The notes below the pieces were generated by a model. The model saw nothing but the letters and a program-made list of their open reading frames with translations. It made no database searches and was not told the DNA's origin. Positions 2,714 to 20,310 of a stretch of 64,000 nucleotides of DNA are shown here, in pieces (within the stretch, counting starts at the first letter, position 1; each line of letters starts with the position of its first letter). Location of the stretch: NCBI GenBank assembly GCA_028874365.1, contig JAPPJZ010000047.1, positions 4,306-68,305 on the forward strand, in the 5' to 3' direction. A program made the position numbers and the translations under genes. This stretch comes from Chloroflexota bacterium (GTDB lineage: Bacteria; Chloroflexota; Dehalococcoidia; Bin125).

Positions 2714-3618
2714 GCGCTATCGCTTGACAGCTCAGACAGAGACTTGACGGCGTTGTCGACTAGCACCGGGTGTGTGCCGCGCGGCAGGTAGTAGGCGATC
2801 TGGATGACGGCGATCGACAGCGCCCAGGCGCGACCGCGTGCCCAGGTGTGCTGATCGATTTCTGCCGCATCGCGCAGTACTTCTCGAGCGTCGGGCGTCG
2901 CCCAACCCCAGGCGACATGCAACTCGGCGGCCGGATCGCCAGCTCCGGCCATGCCCCAGTCGATCACGGCGCTCAATCGGCCGTCCAAGGCGAGCATGTT
3001 GCCCGCATGGAGATCGAAATGGCACCAGCGCGGTGGTTGCTCGTACTCCGGGAGCCTCTGGGCGTCGTCCCAGATGCGCTCCAGCCGAGGGAGCTCGAGC
3101 AGATCGTCGAGCTGAGGCATTGCGGCCATCGCGCGCAACGCACGGCGCGTGAGGCCGTCGCGCGCGCAGAGCGGCAGCCCTCGCCCGCCGGTCTCCGGTC
3201 CGCTTCGCGGAGCGTCCGAGGCATCGATCCGGCGAAGCGCGAGCAGGAACTCTCCCAGCGTCGCGGCGGCGACCAAGGGGTCGGCGAGACGGTCGAGTGA
3301 CGCTTCTTCGCCATCGATCCAGTCCACCACTGACCAGACCCAGGGAAAGCCGGCTGCCGGCCGACCCTCGCCCAGGATGCGCGGGACGCGCAGCGGTAGA
3401 TGCGGCGCGATCCGAAGCAGCCAGTACTGCTCCTTGGAAATGTTCGGCACCGCGCGAGCGATCTGCGGCACGCGGACGCACATGTCATCGCCCAGGCGAA
3501 ACATGATGTTGTCTGTGCCGTCGGACGGGACCGGCCGCAGCGGCAACTCGGCCCACTGCGGAAACTGCGCTGCCAGGAGCCTGCGGACGAGGGCGTGATC
3601 GATCGGCTGATCGCTCAC
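2710..3618 (-). CDS. Aminoglycoside phosphotransferase (APH) family kinase
   Basis: GTDNIMFRLG, HFDLHAGNML (Brenner-like motif), VIDWG. Confidence 0.85.
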   Translation of the reverse strand: MSDQPIDHALVRRLLAAQFPQWAELPLRPVPSDGTDNIMFRLGDDMCVRVPQIARAVPNISKEQYWLLRIAPHLPLRVPRILGEGRPAAGFPWVWSVVDWIDGEEASLDRLADPLVAAATLGEFLLALRRIDASDAPRSGPETGGRGLPLCARDGLTRRALRAMAAMPQLDDLLELPRLERIWDDAQRLPEYEQPPRWCHFDLHAGNMLALDGRLSAVIDWGMAGAGDPAAELHVAWGWATPDAREVLRDAAEIDQHTWARGRAWALSIAVIQIAYYLPRGTHPVLVDNAVKSLSELSSDSA

Positions 3619-4748: not shown

Positions 4749-6692
4749 TTAGGTCTTGAGCTTCTGGATCGCGGTCAGGCTGCCCTCGCCGCGAAGCTCG
4801 GCCGGGCCGACCGGCCAGTTGATGCTGGCCGCCGTGGCCGACGCTGAGGAGACCTCGGTCAGGAAGATCCACGAGAAGTTGTCGTAGAAGGTGACGTAGA
4901 AGTCTTCGAGCAATGCGGCCCGTTCGCCCGGATCCATTGCCTGGTTCTGCGCGATGTACAGCTCCTGGATATCGGTCTCGGGGTAAACGGAGACGGCGTA
5001 GAAGCCTTCCTCGTTGATCTCGGAGCCGATCACGGTCTCCGGCTCGGCGATGCTGTTGGTGAAGAACCAGAACAGGCCGGGCTTCGAGAACGTGCGCACT
5101 TCGGCGAAGTACTCGCTGGAGAGGTACTCAACGATCTTGGTGCGGATACCGACCGCCTCGAGGTCTTCCTGAATGACCAAGGCCATGGTCGGCACGATGA
5201 CCTGGAAGTCGGTCACGATGTGCAGGTCGACATCGATGCCGTCCGGATAGCCGGCTTCAGCCAACAGAGCCTTGGCGCGCTCCGGGTCGTACCCGTGATA
5301 GCGCGACTCGAGTGCGTCCTTGGGGAAACCGATGGTGCCCTTGTAGGGACCGTATGACGGTTGCTCAGATCCGGTCAGCAGACCCTCGATGATCGCCTCG
5401 CGGTTGATGGCCAGGTTGGCCGCTTCGCGCACACGGATGTCGAGGAACGGGTTGGGTACGCCGTCGACCTCGGCCACCGACTCATGGGTGTTAAACATGA
5501 TGTGGTGGGTCGGATTACCGGCCGGCCCGTAGAGGATCTTGAAGTTCTCGTTGTCCTCGTAGGGGACGACGATGTCGGTCGGCAGGTTGTAGGCCACATC
5601 GACTTCGCCGGCCTCGATGCCCGCGAGCTGCGCGAGCGGCTCCGGGCGAATCTTCACGTCGAGGTCCTTGTACCACGGCAGTCGCGGCAGGACCAGGCCG
5701 TCGCGGCCGCGGCGGTACTGATCGTTTCGAGTCCAGTTGAAGCCGACATCTGGCGTGTGCGACTGGAAGACGAATGGACCGGTACCCATGGCCTGCTCGG
5801 TGTCGACGTAGCCGTCACCGTGCTCCTCGACGAACGCCTTGGACATGTGGCGCACGGCGCCGGACATGATCGATCCAGCCAGCGAGGCGTTCGGCGCCGG
5901 CGTCTCGACGCGGAAGGTCAGGTCGTCAACGACGCTGTAGCTGGCGAAGTTCCCCGTGCCGAATGTCCCCCGTGCGGTGCCCCATCCATTCGGATGATCG
6001 CTCGTCTCGCCGCCTGAGTGGTACTCGGCTTCCGACGCCACGCGTTGGAAGTTGAACTCGAGGTCGTGCGCCGTGTACTGAGAGCCGTCGTGGAACAGCG
6101 CGTCATCGGTGACGTGCATGATCAGGTTGGTCGGGTCGACGATTTCGATCGCCGCCACGAGGTTCGGCTCCAGCGCAGCGGTCTCCGGGTGGTTCGACAT
6201 GCCCGCCTCGAAGGTGCAGGCGCCGTTGATGTAGTTGGTCTGTGACCCGGAGCGCTGCGGGTCGAGGCCGGCCGTGTAGCGCGACGTGGCAACGTAGAGC
6301 GTCGCTTCGGTGTCGATCTCCGGCTCGGCCGCCTGCACGTCCTGTTGGGCCTGGTCGCGCTCGATCGCTTCGACCGTGCCTTCCTGGGCCTGCTCCTGCT
6401 GCTCGACCTGTTGGGCTTGCTGCTCAGCCTGCTGCTCGGCCTGCTCCTGCTGCATGGCCTGCTGCTGTTGCTGTTGCTGCTCCGGCTGCTCGGCCGCCGG
6501 TTGCGGCTGTTCCTGCTGCTGCTGCGGTTGCGCCTGGGCGACCGCCTGCTGCTGGTCGTCGTCATCGTCATCGCCACAGCCGACGAGCGCGAGACCGGCC
6601 GCACCGACACCGGCGCGCGAGCTTGCTCGCAGCAGGGCCCGGCGTGACAGGCGCCGGCGACTCATCCGAGTCCAGTAGTTTCGCTTGTGCAT
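4749..6692 (-). CDS. Family-5 ABC substrate-binding lipoprotein (Tat), paralog 1
   Basis: SRRALL twin-Arg, LVGC lipobox, D-run and Q/E/A linker, AMGTGPF, DIRVREAANLAINREAI, LAEAGYPDG. Confidence 0.92.
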   Translation of the reverse strand: MHKRNYWTRMSRRRLSRRALLRASSRAGVGAAGLALVGCGDDDDDDQQQAVAQAQPQQQQEQPQPAAEQPEQQQQQQQAMQQEQAEQQAEQQAQQVEQQEQAQEGTVEAIERDQAQQDVQAAEPEIDTEATLYVATSRYTAGLDPQRSGSQTNYINGACTFEAGMSNHPETAALEPNLVAAIEIVDPTNLIMHVTDDALFHDGSQYTAHDLEFNFQRVASEAEYHSGGETSDHPNGWGTARGTFGTGNFASYSVVDDLTFRVETPAPNASLAGSIMSGAVRHMSKAFVEEHGDGYVDTEQAMGTGPFVFQSHTPDVGFNWTRNDQYRRGRDGLVLPRLPWYKDLDVKIRPEPLAQLAGIEAGEVDVAYNLPTDIVVPYEDNENFKILYGPAGNPTHHIMFNTHESVAEVDGVPNPFLDIRVREAANLAINREAIIEGLLTGSEQPSYGPYKGTIGFPKDALESRYHGYDPERAKALLAEAGYPDGIDVDLHIVTDFQVIVPTMALVIQEDLEAVGIRTKIVEYLSSEYFAEVRTFSKPGLFWFFTNSIAEPETVIGSEINEEGFYAVSVYPETDIQELYIAQNQAMDPGERAALLEDFYVTFYDNFSWIFLTEVSSASATAASINWPVGPAELRGEGSLTAIQKLKT

Positions 6693-6866
6693 CTTCGCTC
6701 CTTCACAATGCGACGCACACGGACTCGCCGTCCGCGCACGTTCGGCAAAGTTTAGGCGATCACGAACTATTCGGTCTACGGCTTATGTCGCAAGCGCAGC
6801 GTCGACGGCCCCCGGGGGGTGGAGACCGCTCTCGGGCCCGCTGATCATGTCTCGTGCAGGCGGGTT

Positions 6867-6906
6867 GCGAGCGGAACTCAGGAGCGATCTCCCTCGTCCC
6901 GCTCGC
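6867..6906 (-). other. Two-tier stem-loop in the 3' UTR of SBP2
   Basis: GCGAGCGG/CCGCTCGC arms enclosing GGAG-CGAT-CTCC; same architecture as 4683..4725. Confidence 0.55.
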
Positions 6907-6930
6907 GTGCGCCTAGTCTGCGGCGGCCCG

Positions 6931-8880
6931 CTAGGCCGTCTTCAGCTTCTGGATCTTCGAGAGCGTGCCCTCGCCGCGCAACTCTGCTGGTCCGACCGGC
7001 CAGTTGATGTTCGCCGCCGTAATCGATGCCGCTGAGATCTCAGTGAGGAAGAGCCACGAGTAGTTGTCGTAGAACAGGGTGTAGAGCTGCTCGATCAAAT
7101 CCGCGCGCTCCGCAGGCACCATCGCCTGCTTCTGGGCGAGGTAGAGCTCGTGAATCTCGGTCTCGGGGTAGACCGACACCGAGTAGAACCCGGTCTCGCT
7201 GATCTCGGCGCCAATCACCGACTCCGGCTCCGCCGAGGCGTTGCTGAAGAAGTAGAACATGCCCGGCTTTGAGAATGTCCGCACCTCAGCGAAGTACTCC
7301 GAGCTGAGGTATTCGATGATCGTGGTGCGGATGCCGACCGCTTCCAAATCCTGCTGCACGATCAGCGCCATGGTCGGGACGATGACCTGGAAGTCGGTCA
7401 CGATGTGCAGATCGACGTCAATCCCGTCTGGGTAACCGGCCTCGGCGAGCAATTGCTTGGCTCGCTCCGGATCGTACGGGTGTTGGCGTGCACGCAACGC
7501 TTCGCCGGGGAAGCCGATCGTGCCCTTGTAGACGCCGTAGGACGGTTCCTCTACGCCGGTCAACAGACCTTCGATGATCGCCTGGCGGTTGATCGCGATG
7601 TTCGCGGCCTCTCGCACGCGGATGTCGAGGAAGGGGTTGGGTACGCCGTCGACCTCATCCACGGCGTCATGCGTGTTGAACATGATGTTGTGGGTGGGGT
7701 TGCCCGACGGTCCGTAGAGCACCTTGAACCGGGGATCGCCGTCGTACGGCGCGACCACGTCGGTGGGCAGGTTGTAGGCGGCGTCGATCTCGCCTGCTTC
7801 GATACCGGCGATCTGGGCCAGCGGTTCGGGGCGCAGCCGAACGTGCAGGTCCTTGTACCAGGCCAGGCGCGGCCCGGCGAGGGCGTCGCGATCCTTGTGA
7901 TACCCCTCGTAGCGGGTGTAGTTGAAGCCGACGTCGGGCAAGTGCTCCTGGAACACGAACGGCCCGGTCCCGACCGCCTCGACCGTGTCGACGTACTCGT
8001 CGCCGTTGGTCTCGACGAACTCCTTCGAGTGCTGTACGACGGCGCCGCCCGTGATCGACGCAACCAGCGAGGCATTCGGCGCCGGCGTCTCGACGGCAAT
8101 GGAGTAGTCGTCGATCAGGTTGTAGCTGGAGAAGTTCTCCGTGCCGAACGTCTGTCGGGCCGAGCCCCAGCCGTTCGGGTGATCGCTGGTCTCGCCGCCC
8201 TGGTGATACTCAGCCGCCGACGAGACACGTTCCCAGTTGAACTGCAGGTCGTGCGCCGTGTAGGGCGTGCCGGAATGGAAGTTGATACCCTGCGCCACGT
8301 GGAAGATCAGATTCGTCGGATCGATCAGCTCGACGGTCTCGACCAGATTGGGCTCGAGAGCTGCCGTTTCGGGGTGATTGTTCATCGCGGAGTCGAACAC
8401 CGTGGATGAGTTGACGTAGTTCGTCTGCGATCCGGAGCGCTGGCCGTCGAGTCCGGCGGTGTAGCGTCCGGTGGCCAGGTTGAGCGTCGCTTCGAGGTCG
8501 ATCTCGGGCTCGGCCGCTTCGACGTCTTGCTGCGCCTCTTCGCGCTCGATCGCCTCGACCGTTCCCTGCTGGGCCTGCTGTTCCTGCTGCTCGACCTGTT
8601 CGGCCTGTTGCTCAGCCTGCTGCTCGGCCTGCTCCTGTTGCATGGCCTGCTGCTGTTGCTGCTGTTGTTGCGGCTGTTCTGCAGCGGGCTGGGGTTGTGC
8701 TTGCTGCTGCTCCTGAGGTTGCGCCTGTACGACAGTCTGCTGCGCGTCGTCATCGTCGTCGCCGCAACCGACCAGCGCAATGCCGGCCGCGCCAACACCG
8801 GCGCGGGCTGAGGCACGCAACAGGGTTCGTCGCGACAGCCGTCGATGCCCCAATCGTTTCCAGTAGTTTCGTGTTGACAT
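6931..8880 (-). CDS. Family-5 ABC substrate-binding lipoprotein (Tat), paralog 2
   Basis: Same motifs as paralog 1 and highly similar sequence. Start reset to ATG 8880 (MSTRNYW) with GGAG upstream. Confidence 0.92.
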   Translation of the reverse strand: MSTRNYWKRLGHRRLSRRTLLRASARAGVGAAGIALVGCGDDDDDAQQTVVQAQPQEQQQAQPQPAAEQPQQQQQQQQAMQQEQAEQQAEQQAEQVEQQEQQAQQGTVEAIEREEAQQDVEAAEPEIDLEATLNLATGRYTAGLDGQRSGSQTNYVNSSTVFDSAMNNHPETAALEPNLVETVELIDPTNLIFHVAQGINFHSGTPYTAHDLQFNWERVSSAAEYHQGGETSDHPNGWGSARQTFGTENFSSYNLIDDYSIAVETPAPNASLVASITGGAVVQHSKEFVETNGDEYVDTVEAVGTGPFVFQEHLPDVGFNYTRYEGYHKDRDALAGPRLAWYKDLHVRLRPEPLAQIAGIEAGEIDAAYNLPTDVVAPYDGDPRFKVLYGPSGNPTHNIMFNTHDAVDEVDGVPNPFLDIRVREAANIAINRQAIIEGLLTGVEEPSYGVYKGTIGFPGEALRARQHPYDPERAKQLLAEAGYPDGIDVDLHIVTDFQVIVPTMALIVQQDLEAVGIRTTIIEYLSSEYFAEVRTFSKPGMFYFFSNASAEPESVIGAEISETGFYSVSVYPETEIHELYLAQKQAMVPAERADLIEQLYTLFYDNYSWLFLTEISAASITAANINWPVGPAELRGEGTLSKIQKLKTA

Positions 8881-8981
8881 CGCTCGTCTCCAAACCTGAC
8901 GGGTACGTCCCGCCAAAGATTGGCTCCGATCGTAAGAAGTCCCAGACGCCCTATTGGTACCCGTGATGACGTTCCGTTACG

Positions 8982-9881
8982 TCAACCGAGGTTGCGCAGG
9001 CGGGGATCGAGCAGGTCGCGCAGCCAGTCGCCGACGAGGTTGCCACTGAGCGCGACGAGCATGAGGGCGAGACCGGGCATCCACATCACCCACCAGGCCT
9101 GGGTCAGGTAGTTGCGCGCCTCGGTGATCATCCGGCCCCAGGTCGCCTGTTCAACGGGGGCGCCGACGCCGAGGAAGCTGAGCGAGGCCTCGGCCACGAT
9201 CACGACCGGCACTTGCAGGGTCATGATCACGACGATCGTGTTGAAGACGTTGGGCAGCAACTGCTTGCGCATGATCCAGAAGCCGCTGCCTCCTGCTGCC
9301 ATGGAGGCGATTACGAACTCGCGCTCCTTGAGCGAGAGCACCTCGGCGCGAACCAGACGCGCATATCCGGCCCAGGTCCAGAACAGGAGGATCAGCACCA
9401 CGTTCCAGATCGAAGCTCCCAGGGCGGCGCCGAGCAGGACGGCAAACACGATGGCCGGTAGCGCAAGCTGGACATCGACGTAGCGCATCAGAGCCTGACC
9501 CAGTTTGCCGCTGCGCCAGCCCGCGATCACCCCGACTGTGCTGCCGAAGAGCGCTGCACCGGGAACGACGATCGCGACCACAATCAGCGAGATGCGCGCG
9601 CCGTGGACGATGCGCGTCCAGATGTCGCGGCCGATGTGATCGGTCCCCAGCAAGCTCTCGCTGGTTCCGCCATCGAACACCGGACGGGCCAGCTTGTTGA
9701 GCACGTTGGTGTCGCCCGGGTCGCCAGGAGCGATGATGTCCGCGAAAATCCCGAAGACGAAGAACATCAGCATGATCGTCAGCGGAGGTACGAGCAGCAG
9801 TGAACGTCGGATGCGACGCGGTCGGCGTATTCGCCACCTGCTTCGCGTCTCAATCGCGGTGTCGGCAATCCGCTCGCTCAT
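8982..9881 (-). CDS. dppC: Peptide/nickel ABC permease, DppC/OppC-like
   Basis: LLGTDHIGRDIWTRIVHGARISL, EFVIASMAAG (EAA loop), LSFLGVG...WGRMI. Confidence 0.88.
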   Translation of the reverse strand: MSERIADTAIETRSRWRIRRPRRIRRSLLLVPPLTIMLMFFVFGIFADIIAPGDPGDTNVLNKLARPVFDGGTSESLLGTDHIGRDIWTRIVHGARISLIVVAIVVPGAALFGSTVGVIAGWRSGKLGQALMRYVDVQLALPAIVFAVLLGAALGASIWNVVLILLFWTWAGYARLVRAEVLSLKEREFVIASMAAGGSGFWIMRKQLLPNVFNTIVVIMTLQVPVVIVAEASLSFLGVGAPVEQATWGRMITEARNYLTQAWWVMWMPGLALMLVALSGNLVGDWLRDLLDPRLRNLG

Positions 9882-9883
9882 GA

Positions 9884-10819
9884 CTAGAGCTCCGCCGCCT
9901 GGATGCGCGGGTCGATGAATCGGTATGAGATATCGACCAGCAGGTTGCCCATGGCGATCGAGAAGGCGATCACGGCCACTCCGGCCTGCACCGTGGGGAA
10001 GTCATCCTTGAGAATCGATTCGATCATCAGCCGTCCCAGTCCCGGCCAGGAGAAGACGACCTCGATGATCACCGACCCGGCGATCAACGTGCCCAACTCC
10101 AGTCCAAGGATGGTCGCGACCGGGATCATCGCGTGACGCAGCGCGTGGCGAACGATCACGGTTCGCTCGTTCAGTCCCTTGGCCCGAGCTGTGCGGATGA
10201 AGTCGGTGTTCATCACGTCGATCATGCCTGAGCGGGTCAGCCGCATGAACCCGGCGGCAGAGAGCAGACCCAGCGAAACGGCCGGCAGCACCAGCGCGCG
10301 GAAGCCCTCCGCTCCAGCGGTTGGGAACCAGTCCACACGCACCGCGAGGAAAAAGATCAGCATCAATCCCAGCCAGAAGCTTGGCGTCGCCTGACCGAAG
10401 ACCGCGATCAGCCGGGCGAGCCAGTCATATGGGGAGCCGCGCGTCAGCGCAGCCAGGATGCCGAGTGGGATGCCCAGGCCGATGGCGACGACCAGCCCAG
10501 CCGCGGTGAGCTTGACCGTCGGCAGAATCTTGTCGGCGACGATATCGATGGCAGAGCCGGCCCGAATAAAGGAATAGCCCAGATCGCCTTGCACGGCATC
10601 CTTCAGGAAAATTCCGTACTGGGTATAGAGCGGCTTGTCGATGCCCAGGCGCTCGCGGACCTTCTCGTAGTCGGCCTCGGTCGTGTCGAAGGGAGGCAGC
10701 AACGCAGCCTCTGGGTTGCCGAAGATTCTCGCGACCACAAACACGATGGTGACCACGACCCAGATCACGAAGATCGTCTGAATCAAGCGGATCAGCAGCA
10801 GGCTGATGAATTGCATCAC
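9884..10819 (-). CDS. dppB: Peptide/nickel ABC permease, DppB/OppB-like
   Basis: LGIDKPLYTQY, DFIRTARAKGL, IIEVVFSWPGLGRL. Start GTG 10819 or ATG 10816. Confidence 0.88.
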   Translation of the reverse strand: MMQFISLLLIRLIQTIFVIWVVVTIVFVVARIFGNPEAALLPPFDTTEADYEKVRERLGIDKPLYTQYGIFLKDAVQGDLGYSFIRAGSAIDIVADKILPTVKLTAAGLVVAIGLGIPLGILAALTRGSPYDWLARLIAVFGQATPSFWLGLMLIFFLAVRVDWFPTAGAEGFRALVLPAVSLGLLSAAGFMRLTRSGMIDVMNTDFIRTARAKGLNERTVIVRHALRHAMIPVATILGLELGTLIAGSVIIEVVFSWPGLGRLMIESILKDDFPTVQAGVAVIAFSIAMGNLLVDISYRFIDPRIQAAEL

Positions 10820-10894: not shown

Positions 10895-13800
10895 CTACCA
10901 GCTATCGATGTAGGGCCGTCTGCCTTCGCGGATCGGTTCGGAGTTGGGCACGGCGTCGAGCAGTCGCAGGATCCACTGGCGTGTCTCGGCCGGGTCGATC
11001 ACGTCGTCCGATTCGAGCACCGTGGCGGCGTTGAAGGCGTTGCCGCGCTCGTAGGCGTCGGCGACCATTTCCTCGTAGACGCGGGTTCGTTCTTCGAGGT
11101 CCTCAATCTGTTCGAGCTGCGCTCTCGCTCCCAGTTTGACACCGGCTTCGAGGTTCATGCCGCCGTACTCGGAGGTCGGCCAGCCAACGTTGAACAGGCC
11201 GGCCTCGGTGCTCCCGGCGAGCATCGCCAGCCCGCCGAGTCCGTAACACTTGCGCAGGGTGATCGTCATCTTCGGCGTGGTCAGGTTGGCCAGCGAGACG
11301 AAGACTCGGTGGCAGTGGCGGACGAGGGCGGTCTTCTCGACCTCTGGACCGACCATCATGCCGGGCGTGTCGACCAGCGTCAGCAGCGGGATGTTCCAGC
11401 AGTCGCAGATCTGCGCGAAGCGAGCCAGCTTGTCCGAGCCGTCGCTATCGACCGCGCCTCCGAGATGCATGTTGTTGTTGGCGATCACGCCAACCGGCCG
11501 ACCTTCAATCCGAATCAACGACGTCACGACGCCGATGCCGAACTCGGGTCGCAGTTCCAACACCGAGTCGTGGTCGGCCAACAGATCGATGACCTTGCGC
11601 ACGTCGTAGGTGCGCAACCGGTTCTCGGGAATGACGTGGCGCAAGAGCCGCTGATCCGGTGCGGTCCACTCCGCAAGCCGTCCCTGGAAGTAGGAGAGGT
11701 ACTTCTTCACCGCGGCCATCGCTTCCTCTTCGTCCTTGACGAAGATGTCTACGACGCCGTTCGGCACCTGCTGCGACATTGGGCCGAGTTCCTCGGGCAG
11801 GAACAGCCCCAGCCCGCCGCCCTCGATCACCGCCGGACCGCCCATGGCGATGTTGGAGCCCTCGGTCGCGACGATGATGTCGCACATGCCGAGCATCGAG
11901 GCGTTGCCGGCGAAGCAACGACCGGCAGTGATCGAGACCATGGGCACCTTCCCCGAGAGCTCAGCGAGCCGCTCGAACGTGCGAACGTTTCGCGCCGCGA
12001 CGCGGGTGTATGCCCAGTCGGAATCTCCCGAGCGGCCGCCTGCGCCTTCGGCGATGAAGACCAACGGTGTCAGCAGGCGATGTGCCGTCTCGACCATGCG
12101 GTCCGTTTTCTCGTGACCGCGGCCACCCTGGGTGCCGGCCCAGACCGTTTCGTCGTAGGAAATGATCGCTGTGCTGGCCACGTCGTTCTCAAACAGGTCA
12201 GCGTTGACCGTGCCGATCCCGCAGATCAGGCCGTCGGCCGGCGAGACCACCCGCAGTTCTTCCCATGATCGCTTGCGCCGTTGCGCCGCAACACCGAGCG
12301 GCATGTACTCATTCCAAGTCCCGCCCTCGACGAGCTGGGTGATGTTCTCGCGCGCGGTCCGCTTGCCCTTGGCGTGGCGCCTGGCGACCGGCCCCGGCCG
12401 GGCGTCGTCCAGCAACGCCTCGTGCAGGTCGATGTTGTGCTGCAGGTCGGGGCGGATGTAATCGAGGTCAATCTCACCCGAGCCGCCGTCGACGGCCGGA
12501 CCAACGTCGGCCGGCTCGATGAACACGAGCGGGTGACCCTCCCAGATGATGTCGCCGATCGAGACGGTGATCTCCTGGACGATTCCGCCGATATCGGCCT
12601 GGAGCACGTGCTCCATCTTCATCGCGTTCATGATGATCACGTCCTGGCCGGCGACCACGCTGTCCCCTTCACCAACGAGGATCTCAATGATCGTGCCCTG
12701 GATCGGTGCGCGCAGCGGCTCGGTGCCCGGCGGCCCGATGATCTCCGGCGCGGGGAACCCGGCGCGATCCTCTTCCAGCCCCCGGTTGACATCGAGCGAC
12801 GCCGCACCGGCGCCCTGGCGGAAAAAGTCGAGCGCGGCCAACGGGTCCGTGACCTGGTTCTCAACCTGGGCACCGGCCCAGGCCGACTGTCCTCCGGCGG
12901 ACGCGCCGTTGTCCGATGTCGCAGCCAGTTCGCCGATACGCTCGTCGATCCAGCGCGTGTGGACGTTGCCTGCGATGAACTCCGGATGACTCAGGATGTT
13001 GCGCAGGAACCCGATGTTCGAGTCCGGTCCCTCGAGTTGGAACTCGTCCAACGCCCGCTGAGCTCGACGAACGGCGTCGTTGAAGTTACCGCTCGGATGG
13101 CGGGTGACGACCTTGGCGATCAGGGAATCGAAGTTCGGATTGGCCGCATATCCGGCGTAGCCATAGGTGTCGACACGTACGCCGGGACCGGCGGGCGGAC
13201 GGAACGTGCGCAGCGCGCCAGCGGCCGGACGTACGTCGCCGTCTTCGCGCATCCGCTCGAGGTTGACCCGGGACTGGATGGCAAACCCGCGTAGCGCTGG
13301 CGGAGCGTCGATGCCCAGGTCGGCCAGGGCCGCGCCTTCGGCGATGCGAATCTGGCACTCGACCAGGTCCAGTCCGGCGACCTCTTCGGTCACGGTGTGT
13401 TCGACCTGCAGCCGCGCATTGGCCTCGATGAAGGCGAAGTCGTCGTTGGTGTCGGCGTCGACCAGAAACTCGAACGTGCCGAGATTGGAATAACCGCCGG
13501 CCGCAGCCAGTTCAACCGCGGCCGTGGTGATTCGCTCGCGCAGATCGTCGCTCAACGTCGGTGACGGCGCGATTTCGATCAGCTTCTGGTAACGGCGCTG
13601 GATCGTGCATTCACGCTCCCCGACATGGGTCACAGCGCCATGCTGGTCACCGACAATCTGCACCTCGATGTGTCGCGCCCGGGGAATGAATCGCTCGACG
13701 AAGAGAGCCCCATTGCCGAACGCCGCCTGAGCCTCGCGCGTGCAGCGTTCGAAGGCGTCCTCGATCTCGGACGATTCGTTGATCGCGCGCATCCCGCGCC

Positions 13801-14293
13801 CACCACCACCACCGATCGCCTTGATCACCATTGGTCGGCCGCCGAGCTGCTCGAAGAAGGCGCGAGCCCCGTCCAGGTCGACCGCGTGGTCCGTGCCGGT
13901 CAGGACCGGAACACTGCGCGCTCCGGCGAGCGTGCGAGCGCGGGCCTTGTCGCCGAACAGGGCCAGGGCGGCCGGAGACGGTCCAACGAACGTGATTCCC
14001 GCTTCTTCGCAGGCGCGAGCGAAGTCAGCGTTCTCGGCGAGGAAGCCGTAACCGGGGTGGATGGCGTCGCATTCGTGCTCTTGCGCACGTTCAATGATTT
14101 GGGCGATATCGAGGTAGGCCGCCGGTCCGATCCCCTCCAGTGCGATGACGGTGTCAGCGTGCCGAACGTGGTCAGATGCGCCATCGTCGGACGAGTGGAT
14201 CGCCGCCGTGGCAACTCCGAGTTCAGTTGCAGTCCGCAGGACGCGGACGGCAATTTCACCACGGTTGGCGACGAGCAGGCGTTGAATGGGCAT
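10895..14293 (-). CDS. Single-chain acyl-CoA carboxylase (biotin carboxylase + BCCP + carboxyltransferase), 1132 aa
   Basis: LVANRGEIA, IHPGYGFLAEN, ARLQVEH; biotin motif AMKM; CT motifs GTQG, EGAGGR and DTPGMMVGP. Confidence 0.92.
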   Translation of the reverse strand: MPIQRLLVANRGEIAVRVLRTATELGVATAAIHSSDDGASDHVRHADTVIALEGIGPAAYLDIAQIIERAQEHECDAIHPGYGFLAENADFARACEEAGITFVGPSPAALALFGDKARARTLAGARSVPVLTGTDHAVDLDGARAFFEQLGGRPMVIKAIGGGGGRGMRAINESSEIEDAFERCTREAQAAFGNGALFVERFIPRARHIEVQIVGDQHGAVTHVGERECTIQRRYQKLIEIAPSPTLSDDLRERITTAAVELAAAGGYSNLGTFEFLVDADTNDDFAFIEANARLQVEHTVTEEVAGLDLVECQIRIAEGAALADLGIDAPPALRGFAIQSRVNLERMREDGDVRPAAGALRTFRPPAGPGVRVDTYGYAGYAANPNFDSLIAKVVTRHPSGNFNDAVRRAQRALDEFQLEGPDSNIGFLRNILSHPEFIAGNVHTRWIDERIGELAATSDNGASAGGQSAWAGAQVENQVTDPLAALDFFRQGAGAASLDVNRGLEEDRAGFPAPEIIGPPGTEPLRAPIQGTIIEILVGEGDSVVAGQDVIIMNAMKMEHVLQADIGGIVQEITVSIGDIIWEGHPLVFIEPADVGPAVDGGSGEIDLDYIRPDLQHNIDLHEALLDDARPGPVARRHAKGKRTARENITQLVEGGTWNEYMPLGVAAQRRKRSWEELRVVSPADGLICGIGTVNADLFENDVASTAIISYDETVWAGTQGGRGHEKTDRMVETAHRLLTPLVFIAEGAGGRSGDSDWAYTRVAARNVRTFERLAELSGKVPMVSITAGRCFAGNASMLGMCDIIVATEGSNIAMGGPAVIEGGGLGLFLPEELGPMSQQVPNGVVDIFVKDEEEAMAAVKKYLSYFQGRLAEWTAPDQRLLRHVIPENRLRTYDVRKVIDLLADHDSVLELRPEFGIGVVTSLIRIEGRPVGVIANNNMHLGGAVDSDGSDKLARFAQICDCWNIPLLTLVDTPGMMVGPEVEKTALVRHCHRVFVSLANLTTPKMTITLRKCYGLGGLAMLAGSTEAGLFNVGWPTSEYGGMNLEAGVKLGARAQLEQIEDLEERTRVYEEMVADAYERGNAFNAATVLESDDVIDPAETRQWILRLLDAVPNSEPIREGRRPYIDSW

Positions 14294-14342: not shown

Positions 14343-15437
14343 TCAACCGCTGGCAACGGCGTCGGCGATCAGACTGCCCAGCGCTTCCGTACTGAGGGAA
14401 TCCTCGCCGTCGCCTGCGAGGTCAGCTGAACGATGACCGGCGGCGAGGGTGTCGATAACCGCCTCTTCGATCGTGCTCGCTTCGTTCTCAAGGCCGAGCG
14501 AGTAACGGAGCATCAGAGCAGCGCTGAGGATCATCGCCATCGGATTGGCGATCCCCTGGCCGGCGATGTCGGGCGCGGTGCCGTGGATCGGCTCATAGAG
14601 GCCCAGCGTCGAGCCGTCTTCGGATGCGCCAAGCGAAGCCGAGGGCAGCATGCCCATCGAACCGGCCAGCATTGACGCTTCGTCGGTCAGGATGTCGCCG
14701 AACATATTCTCGGTGACGATCACGTCGAAGTAGGACGGATGGCGAATCAGGTCCATCGCGCAGGCGTCGACGAGGCGGTGTTCCAGGGTGACGTCCGTAT
14801 AGTCCTTCGCGACTTCGTCGGCGATTTCGCGCCACATGCGAGAGGTATCGAGGATGTTGGCCTTATCAACCGAGGTCAGCAGCTTGCGTCGCGACCGAGC
14901 CGTCTCAAAGCCAAGCCGCACGATGCGCTCGACCTCGTGCTCGGAGTAGGCGAGCGTATCGACGGCCTTGCGCTGTCCGTCTTCCTCCCAACGACGCTGC
15001 GGCTCGCCGAAGTAGATGCCGCCGGTCAGTTCGCGCAGCACGACCATGTCAACGGCTTCGACGGTCTCACGCTTGAGCGGTGTGGCGTTGGCGAGGATCG
15101 GCAGCATCTTCACCGGTCGGATATTGGCGAACAGGCCGAGGCCCTTGCGCAGGCCGAGGATCGCCTGCTCCGGCCGAACCGACGCCTTGGGGTCGTCCCA
15201 TTTCGGCCCGCCGACGGCGCCAAACAGGACCGCGTCCTGTGCCTGGCACATGGCCAGCGTCTCGTCGCGCAGGGCGACGCCGTGCGCGTCGATCGACGCG
15301 CCGCCGACCAGGTCCTCGCTGTACTCGAAGGAGTGATCGAATCGGCCGCCAACTGCGTCGAGCACGCGAACCGCCTGCCCGATGACTTCGCCGCCGATTC
15401 CGTCACCGGGCAACAGGGCAATCCTGAAATGAGCCAT
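14343..15437 (-). CDS. leuB: 3-isopropylmalate dehydrogenase
   Basis: LPGDGIGGEV, FGAVGGPKWD, RELTGGIYFG, VDKANIL, ENMFGDILTD, YEPIHGTAPDIAG. Confidence 0.96.
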   Translation of the reverse strand: MAHFRIALLPGDGIGGEVIGQAVRVLDAVGGRFDHSFEYSEDLVGGASIDAHGVALRDETLAMCQAQDAVLFGAVGGPKWDDPKASVRPEQAILGLRKGLGLFANIRPVKMLPILANATPLKRETVEAVDMVVLRELTGGIYFGEPQRRWEEDGQRKAVDTLAYSEHEVERIVRLGFETARSRRKLLTSVDKANILDTSRMWREIADEVAKDYTDVTLEHRLVDACAMDLIRHPSYFDVIVTENMFGDILTDEASMLAGSMGMLPSASLGASEDGSTLGLYEPIHGTAPDIAGQGIANPMAMILSAALMLRYSLGLENEASTIEEAVIDTLAAGHRSADLAGDGEDSLSTEALGSLIADAVASG

Positions 15438-15449
15438 ACCTGTCAGTTC

Positions 15450-15656
15450 CTAATCGTCGCTGGAGCGCTCACCCGGAGCGCGTTCTGGAGACACTCAACA
15501 GCCTGGATCGCCGTAGTTGCCACAGCAGATCTGTCGCTCTGTCAGCCTATTCCACCAAATGGCGAGCACCCCGGTGACCAGTCGCCAACCGCTGCGGCCT
15601 TCGGCGCGCAGGTTGGCAATCGCGTCGAGGAATGAGGGTTTCGGGTGCTTTAGCAT
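15450..15656 (-). CDS. Small Cys-rich protein, copy 2; candidate selenoprotein (53 aa to UGA, 68 aa with UGA=Sec)
   Basis: Hand translation MLKHPKPSFLDAIANLRAEGRSGWRLVTGVLAIWWNRLTERQICCGNYGDPGC-[TGA 15497..15495]-VSPERAPGERSSDD-TAG. Not in the ORF track. Paralog of 15762..16013. Confidence 0.7.
15465..15481 (-). promoter_or_regulatory. Candidate bacterial SECIS hairpin (copy 2)
   Basis: mRNA GCGCUC-CGGGU-GAGCGC at +14..+30 after UGA. Confidence 0.6.
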
Positions 15657-15761
15657 CTGAACGCTCTCAGTTGCATCTATCGAACCGCCGAGGCCGCGGT
15701 GTTAGGCGTCAATCGCCACCCATCTTCAACCCGGGCCGCAAGATCGCCACTCCCGGAACCA

Positions 15762-16013
15762 TTAATGTCCATGATCGTGGTGGTGGTTGCGGCGGTGATC
15801 GTGATCGTGGTCTTCCGTCTCCATGCGCTCGGCCCGAGCGCGCTCACCGGACACTCAACAACCCGGGTCACCGTAGTTGCCGCAGCAGTTGTCGACATTC
15901 CGCAGCTTGATCAGATTGTTCTTGATCAGACCGTAGATGGCATGACGCCTACCGATCGATCGGCGCAGGTTGGTAATGGTGTCGCCAATGGTCGGCCTTG
16001 GATGCTGGGGCAT
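15762..16013 (-). CDS. Small Cys-rich protein, copy 1; candidate selenoprotein with His-rich tail (52 aa to UGA, 83 aa with UGA=Sec)
   Basis: MPQHPRPTIGDTITNLRRSIGRRHAIYGLIKNNLIKLRNVDNCCGNYGDPGC-[TGA 15857..15855]-VSGERARAERMETEDHDHDHRRNHHHDHGH-TAA. Confidence 0.7.
15825..15841 (-). promoter_or_regulatory. Candidate bacterial SECIS hairpin (copy 1)
   Basis: mRNA GCGCUC-GGGCC-GAGCGC at +14..+30 after UGA; possible lower stem GUGUCC/GGAGAC (5 of 6 pairs). Confidence 0.6.
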
Positions 16014-16077: not shown

Positions 16078-16719
16078 TCAGCGCCAGACTCTCGTCAGGT
16101 CGACGATCAGGCCCTCGGCCACGTCTTCGCCGCTCAGCGAATCTGGACGCTCTAGTCGCTCTGGTTCGGAATCGCCCTGCCGATACACCCAGACTTCACC
16201 TTCCTCGGTGTAGACGTCGATCAACCAGCCGAGCCGAGCATCGGAGGCCATCCACTCCTGCATCTTCTCTTGCTGCTGTTGAGCGCTCTGCGATACCGAA
16301 CGCAACTCCACGATTAATTCAGGGCAGATTGGCCAAAAGCCTTCATCATCCGGCTTCGTGTTCTCGAGCAAGCTTCCACTCGCCCATGCCGCGTCGGGAG
16401 AGCGCACTGCGCTGTTGGGCAGTCGGAAGCCAGTACCTGAGTCGAAGACCTTACCGTCTTGAGTTTTGGCCCACCAAATGTACAACTGGCCGGATAGGTG
16501 AAGAGAGCGGCTGCCGCCGACAGAACCAGTTGGAACAGAAATTTCGAGCGCTCCTTCCGCGTTGCGCTCGAAGCGCCAGAAATCGTTGAGACCACTAATG
16601 GCCAACAGCAACTCGTCGGTGAGGAGGCCCGATGGAAACCGGACAACGAGGGGCCCGGCAGCGGCCTGGGAGTCAGGAGATCCTGTCGTCTGCTCAGTCT
16701 TGATTGCTGCCTGGACCAT
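16078..16719 (-). CDS. Uma2 family (DUF820) PD-(D/E)XK endonuclease-like protein
   Basis: RFERNAEGALEI, DSGTGFRLPNSAVRSPDAAW, CPELIVELRS, ARLGWLID. Confidence 0.9.
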   Translation of the reverse strand: MVQAAIKTEQTTGSPDSQAAAGPLVVRFPSGLLTDELLLAISGLNDFWRFERNAEGALEISVPTGSVGGSRSLHLSGQLYIWWAKTQDGKVFDSGTGFRLPNSAVRSPDAAWASGSLLENTKPDDEGFWPICPELIVELRSVSQSAQQQQEKMQEWMASDARLGWLIDVYTEEGEVWVYRQGDSEPERLERPDSLSGEDVAEGLIVDLTRVWR

Positions 16720-16728
16720 AGGTTGATC

Positions 16729-17319
16729 CTAGAGTGTTACCGGTTTGGTCGACGGTCGTTTGGACTCGTAGTCCGAAATGAGGTCGTCGTGCTCGAGGGT
16801 CAAGGAGATGTCATCAAGGCCGTTGAGCAGGCAGTGTTTGACGAACGGGGCGATGTCGAAGGACCGTACCCAGCCCCCGGGCGCGCTGACGGTCTGGTCT
16901 TCGAGGCTGACCGTGATCGGCGTGTTGGACTCCGACTCGACCATGCGCATCAGCTCTTCGACATCTGGCTGCGGAAGCTGGATCGTGAGTAGGCCCATCT
17001 TGGCCGAGTTATTGCGGAAGATGTCGGCGAACCCGGGTGCGATCACCGCTTTGACGCCCATCCCCTGAATTGCCCAGACGGCGTGTTCGCGGGAGGAGCC
17101 GCAGCCGAAGTTGGGGCCGGCGAGCATCACGCTGGCGCCCTGGTACTGCGGCTGGTTGGTGACGAAGTCGGGATCCTTGGCCCAGGCCTCGAACGCGAAC
17201 GGACCGTAGCCCGTCCGCTCAATCCGCTTGAGGTACTTGGCTGGAATGATCTGGTCGGTGTCGACGTCGGCGCGGTCGAGCGGCAATCCTGTACCGCTGA
17301 AGGTCGTGACGGGATCCAT
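16729..17319 (-). CDS. leuD: 3-isopropylmalate dehydratase small subunit
   Basis: DVDTDQIIPAKYLK, NFGCGSSREHA, FADIFRNN, LLNGLDDI. ATG 17319 has GGAG upstream. Confidence 0.96.
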   Translation of the reverse strand: MDPVTTFSGTGLPLDRADVDTDQIIPAKYLKRIERTGYGPFAFEAWAKDPDFVTNQPQYQGASVMLAGPNFGCGSSREHAVWAIQGMGVKAVIAPGFADIFRNNSAKMGLLTIQLPQPDVEELMRMVESESNTPITVSLEDQTVSAPGGWVRSFDIAPFVKHCLLNGLDDISLTLEHDDLISDYESKRPSTKPVTL

Positions 17320-17346
17320 GGACTGCTCCAATCGGTCTGGGGGATG

Positions 17347-17393: not shown

Positions 17394-18281
17394 TTAGGCG
17401 AAGAATTCTTTGAGCGCGGCTTCTGTTCGGTCGGGCAGTTCCTCAGGCAGGAAATGGCCGCACGGCAGGCCGACGCCGGTGACGTCGGTCGCCCAACGAT
17501 GCCACGTCGCCATGAATCGGCCGCGGCGGTTCGGCTGGCGCGCCGCGCCCCAGATGACGAACAGCGGGCAAGTGATCTGCTTGCCTTCCGAACGGTCGGC
17601 GCGGTCCAGCCGCAGGTCGAAGCGAGCGCCAGAACGGTAGTCCTCGCACCAGCTTCGGACCGTTTCCGGATCGTTGGCGGCGGCCAGGTACTCGGCCATC
17701 GCAGCATCAGTGAAGACGGTCTGGTCGTCCTCGCCGGCCCACGATCCAAGCATCCGTTTGAGGAAGAAGTCTGGAGCGCCGTTGATCAGGGTTTCCGGCA
17801 GCGGCGCAGGTTGAGCGAGGAAGTACCAGTGGAATCCGCCCAGGCCGCCGGCGATGCCCATCTGCTCGAATTGCTCGGCGGTTGGAACGATGTCGAGCAA
17901 CGAGAGCCGCTCGACCCGTTCGGGATGGTCCAGCGCCAGTCGATAGGACACGCGGCCGCCACGGTCGTGACCCGCGAGTGAGAAGGAATCGAAGCCGAGG
18001 TCGGCCATCAGGTCGACCATGTAGCTCGCCATCGCGCGCTTCGAATACGCTTCGCCTCCGCCATCGCCGGGCGGCGAGTCGCTGGCGCCGTAGCCGAGCA
18101 GATCGGCAACGACGACCGTGTGCTCTTCTGCCAGACCGGGCGCGATCTTATGCCACATCGCGCCCGTCTGCGGATAGCCATGAAGCAGCAACAACGGCGA
18201 TCCCGAACCGCCCACGCGGGCGAAGATTGGGCCGGTCTTGTGCTCGCGGAATCCGGGGAACAGGGTCTCGGTGTCGGGCAT
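17394..18281 (-). CDS. Haloacetate/fluoroacetate dehalogenase-like alpha/beta hydrolase
   Basis: LLHGYPQT, GHDRGGRV (Asp nucleophile plus two Arg), LDIVPT, FHWYF, EDYR, GHFLPEE. Confidence 0.85.
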   Translation of the reverse strand: MPDTETLFPGFREHKTGPIFARVGGSGSPLLLLHGYPQTGAMWHKIAPGLAEEHTVVVADLLGYGASDSPPGDGGGEAYSKRAMASYMVDLMADLGFDSFSLAGHDRGGRVSYRLALDHPERVERLSLLDIVPTAEQFEQMGIAGGLGGFHWYFLAQPAPLPETLINGAPDFFLKRMLGSWAGEDDQTVFTDAAMAEYLAAANDPETVRSWCEDYRSGARFDLRLDRADRSEGKQITCPLFVIWGAARQPNRRGRFMATWHRWATDVTGVGLPCGHFLPEELPDRTEAALKEFFA

Positions 18282-18338: not shown

Positions 18339-19088
18339 TTACAGCGCGACGGTGCCGCTGATCGCTGGCTGCAGAGGGTCGCAGATGTAGCGAATCTTGG
18401 GCAGCGTAATGTTGGCAGTCGTGTAGCTGGCAATGATTGGATACACGGGCCGCAAATCGGGGGCGTCCCAGAAGTTGCTGTCGAACGCGTCGATCTGGGC
18501 GGCGCCTCGGTCGGCGCGGCTCACCTCGAAGTCCGGGTCAACCTGCACAAGCCAGGGCTTCGTTTCACCGTCGCGTTCGACGTTCGCGACGTGCATCCCG
18601 GCCGTGTAGAGCAGGTCGCCGTTGCCGATCGGCACGGGGTCGACGAGCTGCGCCGAGAGCACGGCGACGTTGCCGTCATTGACCTCAATCGACTGCCGGT
18701 CGTAGCGCTCGCGCAGGACCGGTTCGCCGACGGTTATCGGGAAGCCCCAACGCTCTTCCAGAGCGGTCGCCGCAGCGCCTTCGGTGCATACGGCGCGGGT
18801 CGGCAGTCCGCGCGGCCGAACCGCGGCCCGGCAGCCGACGCGCACGGAGGCCAACGTGAACGCGCCCAGAGGGCCTTCATCGGCGCGTAGTCCGATTACA
18901 TGCATCGTGGGCGGAATCGTCGGATGCAGGGCCGGCGGCAGCAACTCGGCCATGACCGAGTCGTCGATCTCGTAGATAACCTGCAGCACCTTAACGTTCG
19001 GCAGGGTCAGCGCCTCGGTGTCGAGGTTCGGCATCGTCGGCGCATATCGAGTCAGTTGACCTGGGTCGGCGTTGCCATTGATTGGCAT
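18339..19088 (-). CDS. Acetoacetate decarboxylase-like (ADC superfamily) protein, 249 aa
   Basis: From MPINGNAD (ATG 19088, GAAAGG upstream); LLPPALHP and ERWGFP resemble ADC-family motifs. Confidence 0.65.
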   Translation of the reverse strand: MPINGNADPGQLTRYAPTMPNLDTEALTLPNVKVLQVIYEIDDSVMAELLPPALHPTIPPTMHVIGLRADEGPLGAFTLASVRVGCRAAVRPRGLPTRAVCTEGAAATALEERWGFPITVGEPVLRERYDRQSIEVNDGNVAVLSAQLVDPVPIGNGDLLYTAGMHVANVERDGETKPWLVQVDPDFEVSRADRGAAQIDAFDSNFWDAPDLRPVYPIIASYTTANITLPKIRYICDPLQPAISGTVAL

Positions 19089-19158
19089 TAGCGGCCTTTC
19101 ATTGCGACGTGTCGCGCCGCGCTGGAGTCGCGCTGGAGTCGCGCTTGCGTCTGCGGGG

Positions 19159-20310
19159 CTAGTCGCCGCCGGCAGCCGCAGACGCGGCGAGTTCGCGCGG
19201 CTCGGAGGTGGTCGCCGGCTTGTCGTCGACGAAGTGCGGCATGACCTCCTCGCCGAAGAGGCGCAGGCTGTCGAGCACCTCTTGCTGCGGGATCGTCTCC
19301 AGCGCGTTGAGCAGGAAATTGATCTGGTCAACGCCGCAGGACTCCCACTTCTTGATCTCTTCGACCAGCCGGTCGGGGTTGCCGATGCAGACGCCCTCGG
19401 GCGCGGACATGCCCTCGCCCGGATTCTGTGCGGCCTGCTGACGGGTCGCCGCGAGCAGACCGGGGTTCGGGTAGCTGCGCGTCGGGTGTACTTCGCGCAC
19501 CGGCAGGAGCTGAGCGGCCAGGTAGCCGAACGACCCGGTCAATCGGCTGCCGGTCTTGATCCCGGTCTCATTGTCGGGGTGGCAATAGAGGAAGTTGACC
19601 GTGGCGACGCGCTCGTTGACGAACAGTCCGGCCGGCTCGCAGTCGCGGATCCGGCTGCGGTATCGGTCAACCTTTTCCTCCTGCTCGGCGAAGCCGCCGA
19701 AGGTCAGGCCGAGCGAGCCCATGCCGCGCTCGGCCGCGTCGATCTCGGTGCCGGGCGAGGAGACGGCGACCCACATCGGCGGGTGCGGCTTCTGGTACGG
19801 CTTGGGCAGCACAGCGCGGGTCGGCATGCGGAAGGCGCGGCCCTCGTAGCCATAGCGCTCGTTGGTCCACATCTGCGGGATGGTGCGCGTGTACTCGTCC
19901 CAGGTTTCCTTGGTCTCGTCCGGGTTGGCGTCCATACCGCCCAGTTCGGTCCAGGTCGCCGAGCGTCCGGTGCCGAACTCGAGGCGCCCGTCGGAGAGGA
20001 TGTCGAGCACGGCCGCGCGCTCGGCGGCGCGGATCGGATGGTTGAACTGGGGCACGCAAACGACGATCCCGTGTCCCACGCGGATCTGCTTGGTCTGCAT
20101 CGCGCAGGCGGTCAGGAAGAGCTCGGGCGCGGAACAGTGCGAGTACTCCTCGAGGAAGTGGTGCTCGACGGCCCAGACCGAATGGAAGCCCATTTCATCC
20201 GCCACTCGCACCTGCTCAAGGCAACGGTGATACACCTCATGCTCAATGTCGTTCTCCCACGGTCGGGGAACGGAGATCTCGTAGAAGATGCCGAATTTCA
20301 TGGCGTCCAT
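19159..20310 (-). CDS. LLM class flavin-dependent oxidoreductase
   Basis: MKFGIFYE, VWAVEHHFLEEYS, HPIRAAERAAVLDILSDGRLEFGTGR, PKPYQKPHPP. Confidence 0.9.
   Translation of the reverse strand: MDAMKFGIFYEISVPRPWENDIEHEVYHRCLEQVRVADEMGFHSVWAVEHHFLEEYSHCSAPELFLTACAMQTKQIRVGHGIVVCVPQFNHPIRAAERAAVLDILSDGRLEFGTGRSATWTELGGMDANPDETKETWDEYTRTIPQMWTNERYGYEGRAFRMPTRAVLPKPYQKPHPPMWVAVSSPGTEIDAAERGMGSLGLTFGGFAEQEEKVDRYRSRIRDCEPAGLFVNERVATVNFLYCHPDNETGIKTGSRLTGSFGYLAAQLLPVREVHPTRSYPNPGLLAATRQQAAQNPGEGMSAPEGVCIGNPDRLVEEIKKWESCGVDQINFLLNALETIPQQEVLDSLRLFGEEVMPHFVDDKPATTSEPRELAASAAAGGD

Follow-up and report, generated by a model that had tools for sequence, protein, structure and literature searches.

Mammalian thioredoxin reductase carries a C-terminal Gly-Cys-Sec-Gly center in which the G-C-U sequence lies on a flexible segment and selenocysteine (Sec, U) is interchangeable with cysteine in homologues. 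Vicinal cysteines also form metal sites, e.g. the CC motif of Cox17 for Cu(I) and the CC pairs of MerA and MerT for Hg(II). A 2026 catalogue lists 119 prokaryotic selenoprotein families with a model accession for each (PMC13188914, Table 1), and its CU-motif families include SaoC, SaoL, HgcA, MbdU, KCU-star and Csac_0668, plus the CC/Se family (PMC13188914). Metagenome-assembled genomes (MAGs) of Dehalococcoidia are among the most selenoprotein-rich bacteria in BSepDB, with 46-49 genes (PMC13326102). The DNA analyzed here, referred to as the window, is a stretch of 64,000 nucleotides (nt) from a Dehalococcoidia member of the Chloroflexota (assembly GCA_028874365.1, contig JAPPJZ010000047.1), and coordinates are positions within it unless another locus is named. 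It contains two tandem minus-strand genes in which the motif CCGNYGDPGC stands directly before an in-frame TGA. Comparison with their homologues indicates that both very probably encode small selenoproteins, members of what is called here the CC…CU family, with TGA decoded as Sec through the standard selenocysteine insertion sequence (SECIS) mechanism.

Two Small Genes and Their Gene Models

The gene pair sits between leuD (16729..17331) and leuB (14343..15437), both also on the minus strand. The elements of the two genes are as follows.

15762..16013, minus strand: copy 1 (type A), full coding sequence through TGA by translation, 83 amino acids (aa), MPQHPRPTIGDTITNLRRSIGRRHAIYGLIKNNLIKLRNVDNCCGNYGDPGC-U-VSGERARAERMETEDHDHDHRRNHHHDHGH, stop TAA
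15855..15857, minus strand: in-frame TGA of copy 1, predicted Sec53 codon from the family-wide TGA/Cys codon pattern and the Cys homologues
15765..15854, minus strand: post-Sec tail of copy 1, 30 aa, acidic then His-rich (EDHDHDHRRNHHHDHGH)
15825..15841, minus strand: SECIS-like hairpin of copy 1, GCGCUCG-GGC-CGAGCGC, 7 bp stem, loop GGC, 20 nt after UGA, -10.7 kcal/mol
15450..15656, minus strand: copy 2 (type C), full coding sequence through TGA by translation, 68 aa, MLKHPKPSFLDAIANLRAEGRSGWRLVTGVLAIWWNRLTERQICCGNYGDPGC-U-VSPERAPGERSSDD, stop TAG
15495..15497, minus strand: in-frame TGA of copy 2, predicted Sec54 codon on the same evidence as for copy 1
15465..15481, minus strand: SECIS-like hairpin of copy 2, GCGCUC-CGGGU-GAGCGC, 6 bp stem, loop CGGGU, 19 nt after UGA, -8.8 kcal/mol

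An earlier note on this DNA had described two tandem minus-strand genes with related N-termini and an identical CCGNYGDPGC, and the sequence bears this out. Copy 1 runs from the ATG at 16013 to the TGA at 15857-15855 (52 codons) and has the N-terminus MPQHPRPTIGDTITNLR; copy 2 runs from the ATG at 15656 to the TGA at 15497-15495 (53 codons) and has the N-terminus MLKHPKPSFLDAIANLR. The shared motif is encoded by TGC TGC GGC AAC TAC GGT GAC CCG GGT TGT in copy 1 and by TGC TGT GGC AAC TAC GGC GAT CCA GGC TGT in copy 2, and five of the ten codons differ, each at a synonymous third position. The purifying selection at the protein level that the note had read from these codons stands, and the peptides belong to a real protein family. 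The gene model does not stand: the note had taken TGA as the stop and given products of 52 and 53 aa, whereas the predicted products are ~83 and 68 aa, and the Sec, the SECIS hairpin and the tails were missed.

Past TGA, the frame of copy 1 stays open for 30 further codons (VSGERARAERMETEDHDHDHRRNHHHDHGH) up to TAA at 15764-15762, and that of copy 2 for 14 further codons (VSPERAPGERSSDD) up to TAG at 15452-15450. The likeness between the copies also runs beyond TGA, with an identical GTGTC followed by the conserved stem GCGCTC…GAGCGC. The mechanical list of open reading frames (ORFs) includes copy 2, and the tail of copy 1 appears there as a separate 30-aa ORF. A simple Sec filter run over the whole window passes five TGA sites, two of which are these genes and three of which are off-frame artefacts.

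Family Size, Layout and Distribution

Searches with both peptides recover a family under coding constraint. With a profile of the two peptides, 37 unnamed proteins with lengths of 51-57 aa were retrieved from Chloroflexota MAGs, and 36 of the 37 end exactly at …PGC. An exhaustive HMMER search gives 246 clusters at 50% identity; ~168 of 180 short cluster representatives stop right after …PGC, and in five the sequence is …PGC-C followed by a tail. Two samples of loci were used for comparison. The genomic sample came from a scan of one genome per species (73 loci, from Dehalococcoidia, other Chloroflexota and Dormibacterota), and the metagenomic sample from an independent scan seeded with divergent CCGH-type members, which gave >552 stretches, with 80 loci kept in addition to the context loci L078-L081. 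With these numbers of close homologues, clusters, loci and metagenomic stretches, the similarity of the two peptides is far above chance.

Members occur in Dehalococcoidia, other Chloroflexota including Chloroflexia, Dormibacterota, Acidimicrobiia and Desulfurivibrionaceae (Desulfobacterota), i.e. in at least four phyla, and all of them are labelled “hypothetical protein”. One contig, L069 (DASPYG010000019.1), is labelled as the archaeon Candidatus Nitrosopolaris and yet has a gene, tail (MTIAEARAAGLIK) and synteny of the Dormibacterota type; it is probably mis-binned. The N-terminus of the family is variable, with an MC start in 36 of 228 members and at times a His-rich sequence. It is followed by a body of ~32 residues with a net charge of +5.2, PS..(D)..NLR..P.P…KLRL..RNNWIKIRTRQ, and then by the invariant loop C-C-G-[NH]-x-G-[EDQ]-P-G-C-(U/C). 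Sec is followed by V in the window copies and by Q, E, T or M in others. An AlphaFold2 model of the Cys form P0027 has two helices and then an unstructured Cys loop, at a predicted local distance difference test (pLDDT) score of 61.

The earlier note had not recognized the family, and this too agrees with the searches: neither the window peptides nor 90 diverse members have a match in Pfam or NCBIfam, a PDB profile search found no relative, and the Cys-rich motif is conserved. None of the catalogued selenoprotein families with Pfam or NCBIfam models matches the family, in a scan that took in no CDD-only entries. The motif string was not found in the literature searched, and the new families of deep-Sep differ from the CC…CU family. 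The protein family looks new; its decoding looks like standard bacterial Sec insertion. Some long proteins (P0038, P0044, P0129 and P0165, 1038-1471 aa) match the profile in 7-14 stretches each, and one 158-aa protein has degenerate tandem units (…RIQNCCGYYGSSCPGCKT…). Matches of this type probably reflect either artefacts of repetition or a repeat family unrelated to this one.

The Codon after the Motif

The codon that follows …PGC is TGA in all 112 copies from the 73 genomic loci and the window. The more divergent metagenomic sample has TGA in 74 of 85 copies, TGT in six and TGC in five, and neither TAA nor TAG was found at this position among the 112 genomic and 85 metagenomic copies. Restriction of a position to TGA and Cys codons is the textbook hallmark of selenocysteine. 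The ends of the read-through tails in the 112 genomic copies are distributed among TAG (78), TAA (17) and TGA (17), and TGA makes up 52% of long-ORF stops in the same loci. Genetic codes 4 and 25 were considered and rejected, as TGA terminates that share of long ORFs in the same genomes.

Five Cys homologues (P0027, P0046, P0066, P0096 and P0128) read …PGC-C-tail, and P0027 continues …PGC-C-VTTEHAIRE…. A few database translations (P0159/P0203/P0204, P0142 and P0170) have W, G or Q at the Sec position, e.g. …PGCWQRADGSREGPSHDHDHNHDHWQVAPL. The W and G translations look like TGA read by a gene-calling pipeline with code 4 or 25, in which case a second W would be the real stop.

Predicted Tails after TGA

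The sequence after TGA appears to continue as coding sequence and to evolve as such. Substitutions at codon positions 1/2/3 after TGA number 741/746/1824, 71/59/219, 154/153/360 and 240/82/606 in four subfamilies, the first set belonging to the copy 2 tail and the last to the copy 1 tail. The Ser after Sec is encoded by seven codons, with AGC in use as well as TCN, and the tails keep their length among homologues. Tails of copy 1 orthologues are conserved as protein (VSGERARAERM… and a His-rich end), and the 14-aa tail of copy 2, VSPERAPGER(P/S)xDD, keeps its length and sequence in ~30 orthologues. Across the family, tails are 0-30 residues long and contain 6.5% His and 24.5% Asp+Glu, each ~2x background. 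His-rich tails recur among orthologues and Cys forms, and 21 of 159 tails have at least three His. A type B paralogue in L043 (~9870-9900) has a run of ~17 C directly after TGA, by which hairpin and tail frame are shifted (TPPPPPQTLRM…); this reflects either an assembly error in the homopolymer or decay of the copy.

SECIS-Like Hairpins

Bacterial SECIS (bSECIS) elements have been defined by a loop of 3-9 nt that has G in its initial two positions, a stem of 4-16 bp, a distance of 16-37 nt from UGA and an energy of <= -7.5 kcal/mol (PMC13188914). Both window hairpins have all four properties. By enumeration of local hairpins, the same holds for 77% of genomic and 59% of metagenomic TGA forms, as compared to ~10% of controls; none of the 10 Cys forms qualifies. 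A stem that is unbroken over at least 6 bp and has the center of its loop 21-29 nt from the U of UGA is present in 79% of 104 unique genomic sequences, in 11% of random in-frame coding windows and in 12% of sequences after genuine stops. TGA forms fold with a mean energy of -10.6 kcal/mol and Cys forms with one of -4.4 kcal/mol (p ~1e-6).

Hairpin loops contain GG or GU in 62 of 70 cases. At least 38 stem/loop combinations share one offset after TGA, with stems such as GCGCUC/GAGCGC, GCGUUC/GAACGC, GACGCUC/GAGCGUC, CCAUCC/GGAUGG, GGCCGCC/GGCGGCC and CGUCCG/CGGACG. The hairpin is retained in copies with only 0-4 codons after TGA and is therefore not a by-product of tail coding. Identity as an intrinsic terminator was rejected, since no T-run follows the hairpins on the 3' side. 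A search of Rfam gave no match, neither with the gathering thresholds nor with E values as high as 10.

Probable Decoding of TGA as Selenocysteine

Codon pattern, tails and hairpins together make it very probable that both genes are small selenoproteins. In the proposed mechanism, the TGA after …CCGNYGDPGC would be read as Sec with the aid of a SECIS stem-loop that starts ~13 nt downstream, and translation would run on into a short acidic tail in copy 2 or an acidic and His-rich tail in copy 1. The predicted products are cytoplasmic proteins of 83 aa (Sec53) and 68 aa (Sec54).

Several observations weigh against Sec decoding. RNAalifold yields no single consensus structure from all 103 downstream sequences, because subfamilies use different registers. 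Covariation in a single register is only modest, and controls slid by ±2 also score high because of GC periodicity. Dormibacterota hairpins have stems of 4 bp (GGCC-CGUGC-GGCC), and most of these copies fail the energy threshold. ARAGORN found no tRNA-Sec gene (selC) in the window or the loci, and selA, selB and selD were not seen there either, among ORFs that were not systematically screened for them. Support for the Sec trait comes from the literature at class level and does not extend to Dormibacterota, and the case as a whole is comparative.

The alternative would be ordinary Cys-rich peptides of 52 and 53 aa that end at TGA, with a hairpin that stabilizes or terminates the mRNA and an open frame that is incidental. 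TGA is indeed the commonest stop in these genomes, the short form is what gene callers and NCBI annotate, and Sec machinery was not seen in the window. But a stop codon free to vary does not fit 186 copies with TGA, none with TAA or TAG, and a Cys codon as the sole substitute. Nor does an incidental frame fit third-position bias in the tails and a switch between AGC and TCN serine codons, and the hairpin is lost exactly in the Cys-codon forms and lacks the T-runs of a terminator. The comparative data have largely refuted this alternative already, and its chance of being right is very slight.

Gene Neighborhood

The genes are followed immediately downstream by leuB, at a junction that overlaps the end of copy 2.

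14343..15437, minus strand: leuB (3-isopropylmalate dehydrogenase), TIGR00169, 486 bits against a cutoff of 353, co-oriented and immediately downstream
15438..15452, minus strand: junction of copy 2 and leuB, in which TAG (15452-15450) overlaps a Shine-Dalgarno (SD)-like AGGA and the leuB ATG (first base 15437) lies 12 nt on

The pattern TAGGAAC-N8-9-ATG is conserved in orthologous loci (type C copies, L016-L051). The overlap of TAG with the ribosome-binding site of leuB suggests translational coupling and may explain why TAG is the true stop in 78 of 112 copies. Neither a terminator-like nor a promoter-like site lies between the small genes and leuB, and no terminator-like site was found in 15300-16800. 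Given this and the shared orientation, the small genes are probably co-transcribed with leuB in Chloroflexota. A Leu attenuator or leader peptide was rejected as the identity of the genes, since the peptides have no Leu run and the same interval contains no terminator-like site.

In nearly all of the Chloroflexota loci examined, the gene occupies the interval from leuD to leuB, in Sec forms and in the Cys form P0027 alike. It is present in one to three tandem copies, paralogues of types A, B and C, the last of which adjoins leuB. Small genes are followed by leuB in nearly all Dehalococcoidia loci and also in L074, L078 and L080, and this position is kept despite the insertion of a Uma2 endonuclease or methylase/HNH gene after leuD. 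The gene order around P0027 is ilvBN-ilvC-leuA-leuCD-X-APH-leuB, with an APH phosphotransferase gene between the small gene and leuB. Dormibacterota copies have hisA-like, DUF3465, SDR, MFS and ilvE-type genes as neighbors, and the remaining lineages have unrelated housekeeping neighbors.

The interval between leuD and leuB looks like a tolerated insertion site. In the window, it contains a gene for a putative endonuclease of the Uma2 family (16078..16719, minus strand; PF05685, E=5e-28) between leuD and the small genes; L080 has a methyltransferase/HNH gene in the same slot, and L074 has the APH gene between the small gene and leuB. The leuD of the window (NF002458; 16729..17331) is not preceded by leuC, and leuC and leuD occur together in L074 and L078. 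Upstream of the window leuD are an alpha/beta hydrolase gene (17394..18281) and an acetoacetate-decarboxylase-like gene (18339..19331). Downstream of leuB, a minus-strand gene (10895..14293) encodes a 1132-aa fusion of biotin carboxylase, biotin carboxyl carrier protein (BCCP) and carboxyltransferase that resembles acyl-CoA/pyruvate carboxylases, and this fusion is syntenic downstream of leuB in 40 loci. The Cys-form locus L074 also has a 51-aa hydrophobic ORF between ilvN and ilvC (2982..3137), which is not a family member. A few kb downstream of the gene for the His-rich selenoprotein is a block of Opp/Nik-type ATP-binding cassette (ABC) transporter genes (4749..10819, minus strand). The block comprises two substrate-binding proteins and two permeases with best matches to nickel/oligopeptide systems, all sub-threshold, and a linkage with the selenoprotein is not implied.

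Possible Functions

The architecture comprises the variable N-terminus, two helices with a net charge of ~+5 (from a low-confidence AlphaFold2 model), the Gly/Pro-rich loop C-C-G-x-x-G-x-P-G-C-(U/C) and an acidic/His-rich tail. The loop may fold back so that the vicinal Cys-Cys and vicinal Cys-Sec pairs form one four-chalcogen site. A soft-metal binding site in the loop, helped by His/Asp/Glu in the tails, is tentatively the leading candidate for the role of these proteins. The earlier note had proposed a metal- or thiol-redox-active mini-protein, which remains plausible from the sequences and is somewhat strengthened by the Cys/Sec-interchangeable site and the recurrent His-rich tails. On the other side, the structural model is poor (pLDDT 61) and His-rich tails are a minority. 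Neighborhood clustering did not turn up a partner gene common to the phyla, so the surroundings of the gene offer no solid pointer to function.

Next in likelihood, although on balance unlikely, is a metal-free thiol/selenol relay that would cycle between a vicinal disulfide or selenenylsulfide and its reduced form, in the manner of the thioredoxin reductase GCUG tail or of eukaryotic SelS/SelK. Sec that is interchangeable with Cys is found mostly in redox sites (PMC13188914), the motif holds a Cys-Sec dipeptide, and in many members Sec is 0-4 residues from the C-terminus, as in thioredoxin reductase. Against a relay, the proteins lack a thioredoxin-like or flavoprotein domain and no reductase partner was found in any neighborhood examined; the recurrent His-rich and acidic termini are also better suited to metal binding. 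The position before leuB raises another reading, in which the ORFs act mainly in cis as leaders or upstream ORFs that set leuB expression, e.g. by coupling dependent on UGA read-through, and the peptide is secondary. The constancy of this position in Chloroflexota, even where mobile genes separate leuD, the TAG overlap with the SD-like AGGA 12 nt before ATG, and the lack of a terminator-like or promoter-like site before leuB speak for it. It is very unlikely nonetheless, as the core of the peptide does not vary across at least four phyla and the neighborhoods in Dormibacterota, Acidimicrobiia, Desulfobacterota and sediment metagenomes are unrelated. Up to three tandem paralogues occur of which the last alone abuts leuB, the APH gene parts the small gene from leuB in L074, and both a Leu-codon run and an attenuator terminator are absent.

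The peptides could also be precursors of ribosomally synthesized and post-translationally modified peptides (RiPPs), with a conserved leader and a Cys/Sec-rich core to be modified by a maturase. Their size and layout (N-terminal PS..D..NLR, then a Cys-rich C-terminus) fit, and Sec-containing RiPP-like peptides exist, e.g. the selenobacteriocin family TIGR04081 (PMC13188914). This reading is nevertheless extremely improbable: the “core” is invariant rather than hypervariable, the neighbors are housekeeping genes, and no radical S-adenosylmethionine (SAM) enzyme, cyclodehydratase, lanthipeptide synthetase, protease or exporter is conserved alongside in ~150 loci. A bolder form of the metal-site proposal holds that the CC-x7-CU loop is an as yet unknown kind of selenium-containing metal center (e.g. 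Cys3Sec for Ni, Cu or Fe) in a mini-protein that stands alone, with Sec read-through translationally coupled to leuB in Chloroflexota. Such a center would be a long shot; if it is true, leuB expression or the care of the Fe-S isomerase LeuCD would be tied to selenium/metal status. Beyond the soft-metal site and the relay, the rest of the probability goes to other roles, one tied to the leu operon among them.

Significance

If the assignment is right, a widespread family would be added to the ~119 that have been catalogued, with at least 246 clusters and >550 metagenomic copies in at least four phyla. A vicinal Cys-Cys combined with a Cys-Sec pair in one motif is unusual. Mis-annotation of the family is systematic, as the database copies seen all either break off at the Sec codon or were translated under an incorrect genetic code, and a Sec-aware NCBIfam/Pfam model would mend hundreds of gene models. 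The corrected models would raise selenoproteome counts in Chloroflexota, including marine and sponge-associated Dehalococcoidia, and would suggest Sec use in Dormibacterota. The fixed place before leuB raises the question of whether selenium/metal handling is linked with branched-chain amino-acid biosynthesis. The tiny protein is also tractable, and synthesis, metal titration, redox potentiometry, nuclear magnetic resonance (NMR) and SECIS reporter assays are all feasible.

Comparison with Known Systems

The hairpins resemble the canonical bacterial SECIS (E. coli fdhF type and the model in PMC13188914) in that a stem-loop lies within the coding region just 3' of UGA. The window elements share its UGA-loop spacing (19-20 nt), its loop of 3-5 nt with an early G and an energy below -7.5 kcal/mol. 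In contrast to the canonical element, they have no sequence similarity to fdhF and no Rfam match, and the Dormibacterota versions are minimal with their 4-bp stems.

Among proteins, the CC…CU family has the G-C-U sequence and the Sec/Cys interchange of thioredoxin reductase. It differs in the absence of a flavoprotein/pyridine-nucleotide disulfide oxidoreductase domain and in the residue after Sec, which is V, Q, E, T or M rather than Gly. The CC…CU protein also stands alone at 60-85 aa and has a second vicinal Cys-Cys 7 residues upstream. The CC sites of Cox17, MerA and MerT resemble the family in that two adjacent cysteines are placed on a small scaffold, helical or flexible, but no homology to them was detected, the CC…CU family lacks the twin CX9C fold of Cox17, and mer or cop genes are missing from its context.

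Also comparable are the families of Haft and colleagues, i.e. SaoC (Cys-Cys-COOH, NF040734), MbdU (metal-binding double selenoprotein, NF045648), KCU-star (NF033934) and the CC/Se motif family (NF041239). Like the CC…CU family, these are short proteins of bacteria that contain a vicinal Cys-Cys, a Cys-Sec dipeptide or both, in which Sec is often near the true C-terminus and which databases usually truncate at TGA, and they are thought to bind metals or metalloids. The CC…CU family has no sequence relationship to them (90 members and the window peptides, without an NCBIfam match), and its loci lack a gene neighborhood of the sao/Hg/As type. What distinguishes it is the combination of the CCGxxGxPGCU loop, a basic two-helix body and an acidic/His-rich tail.

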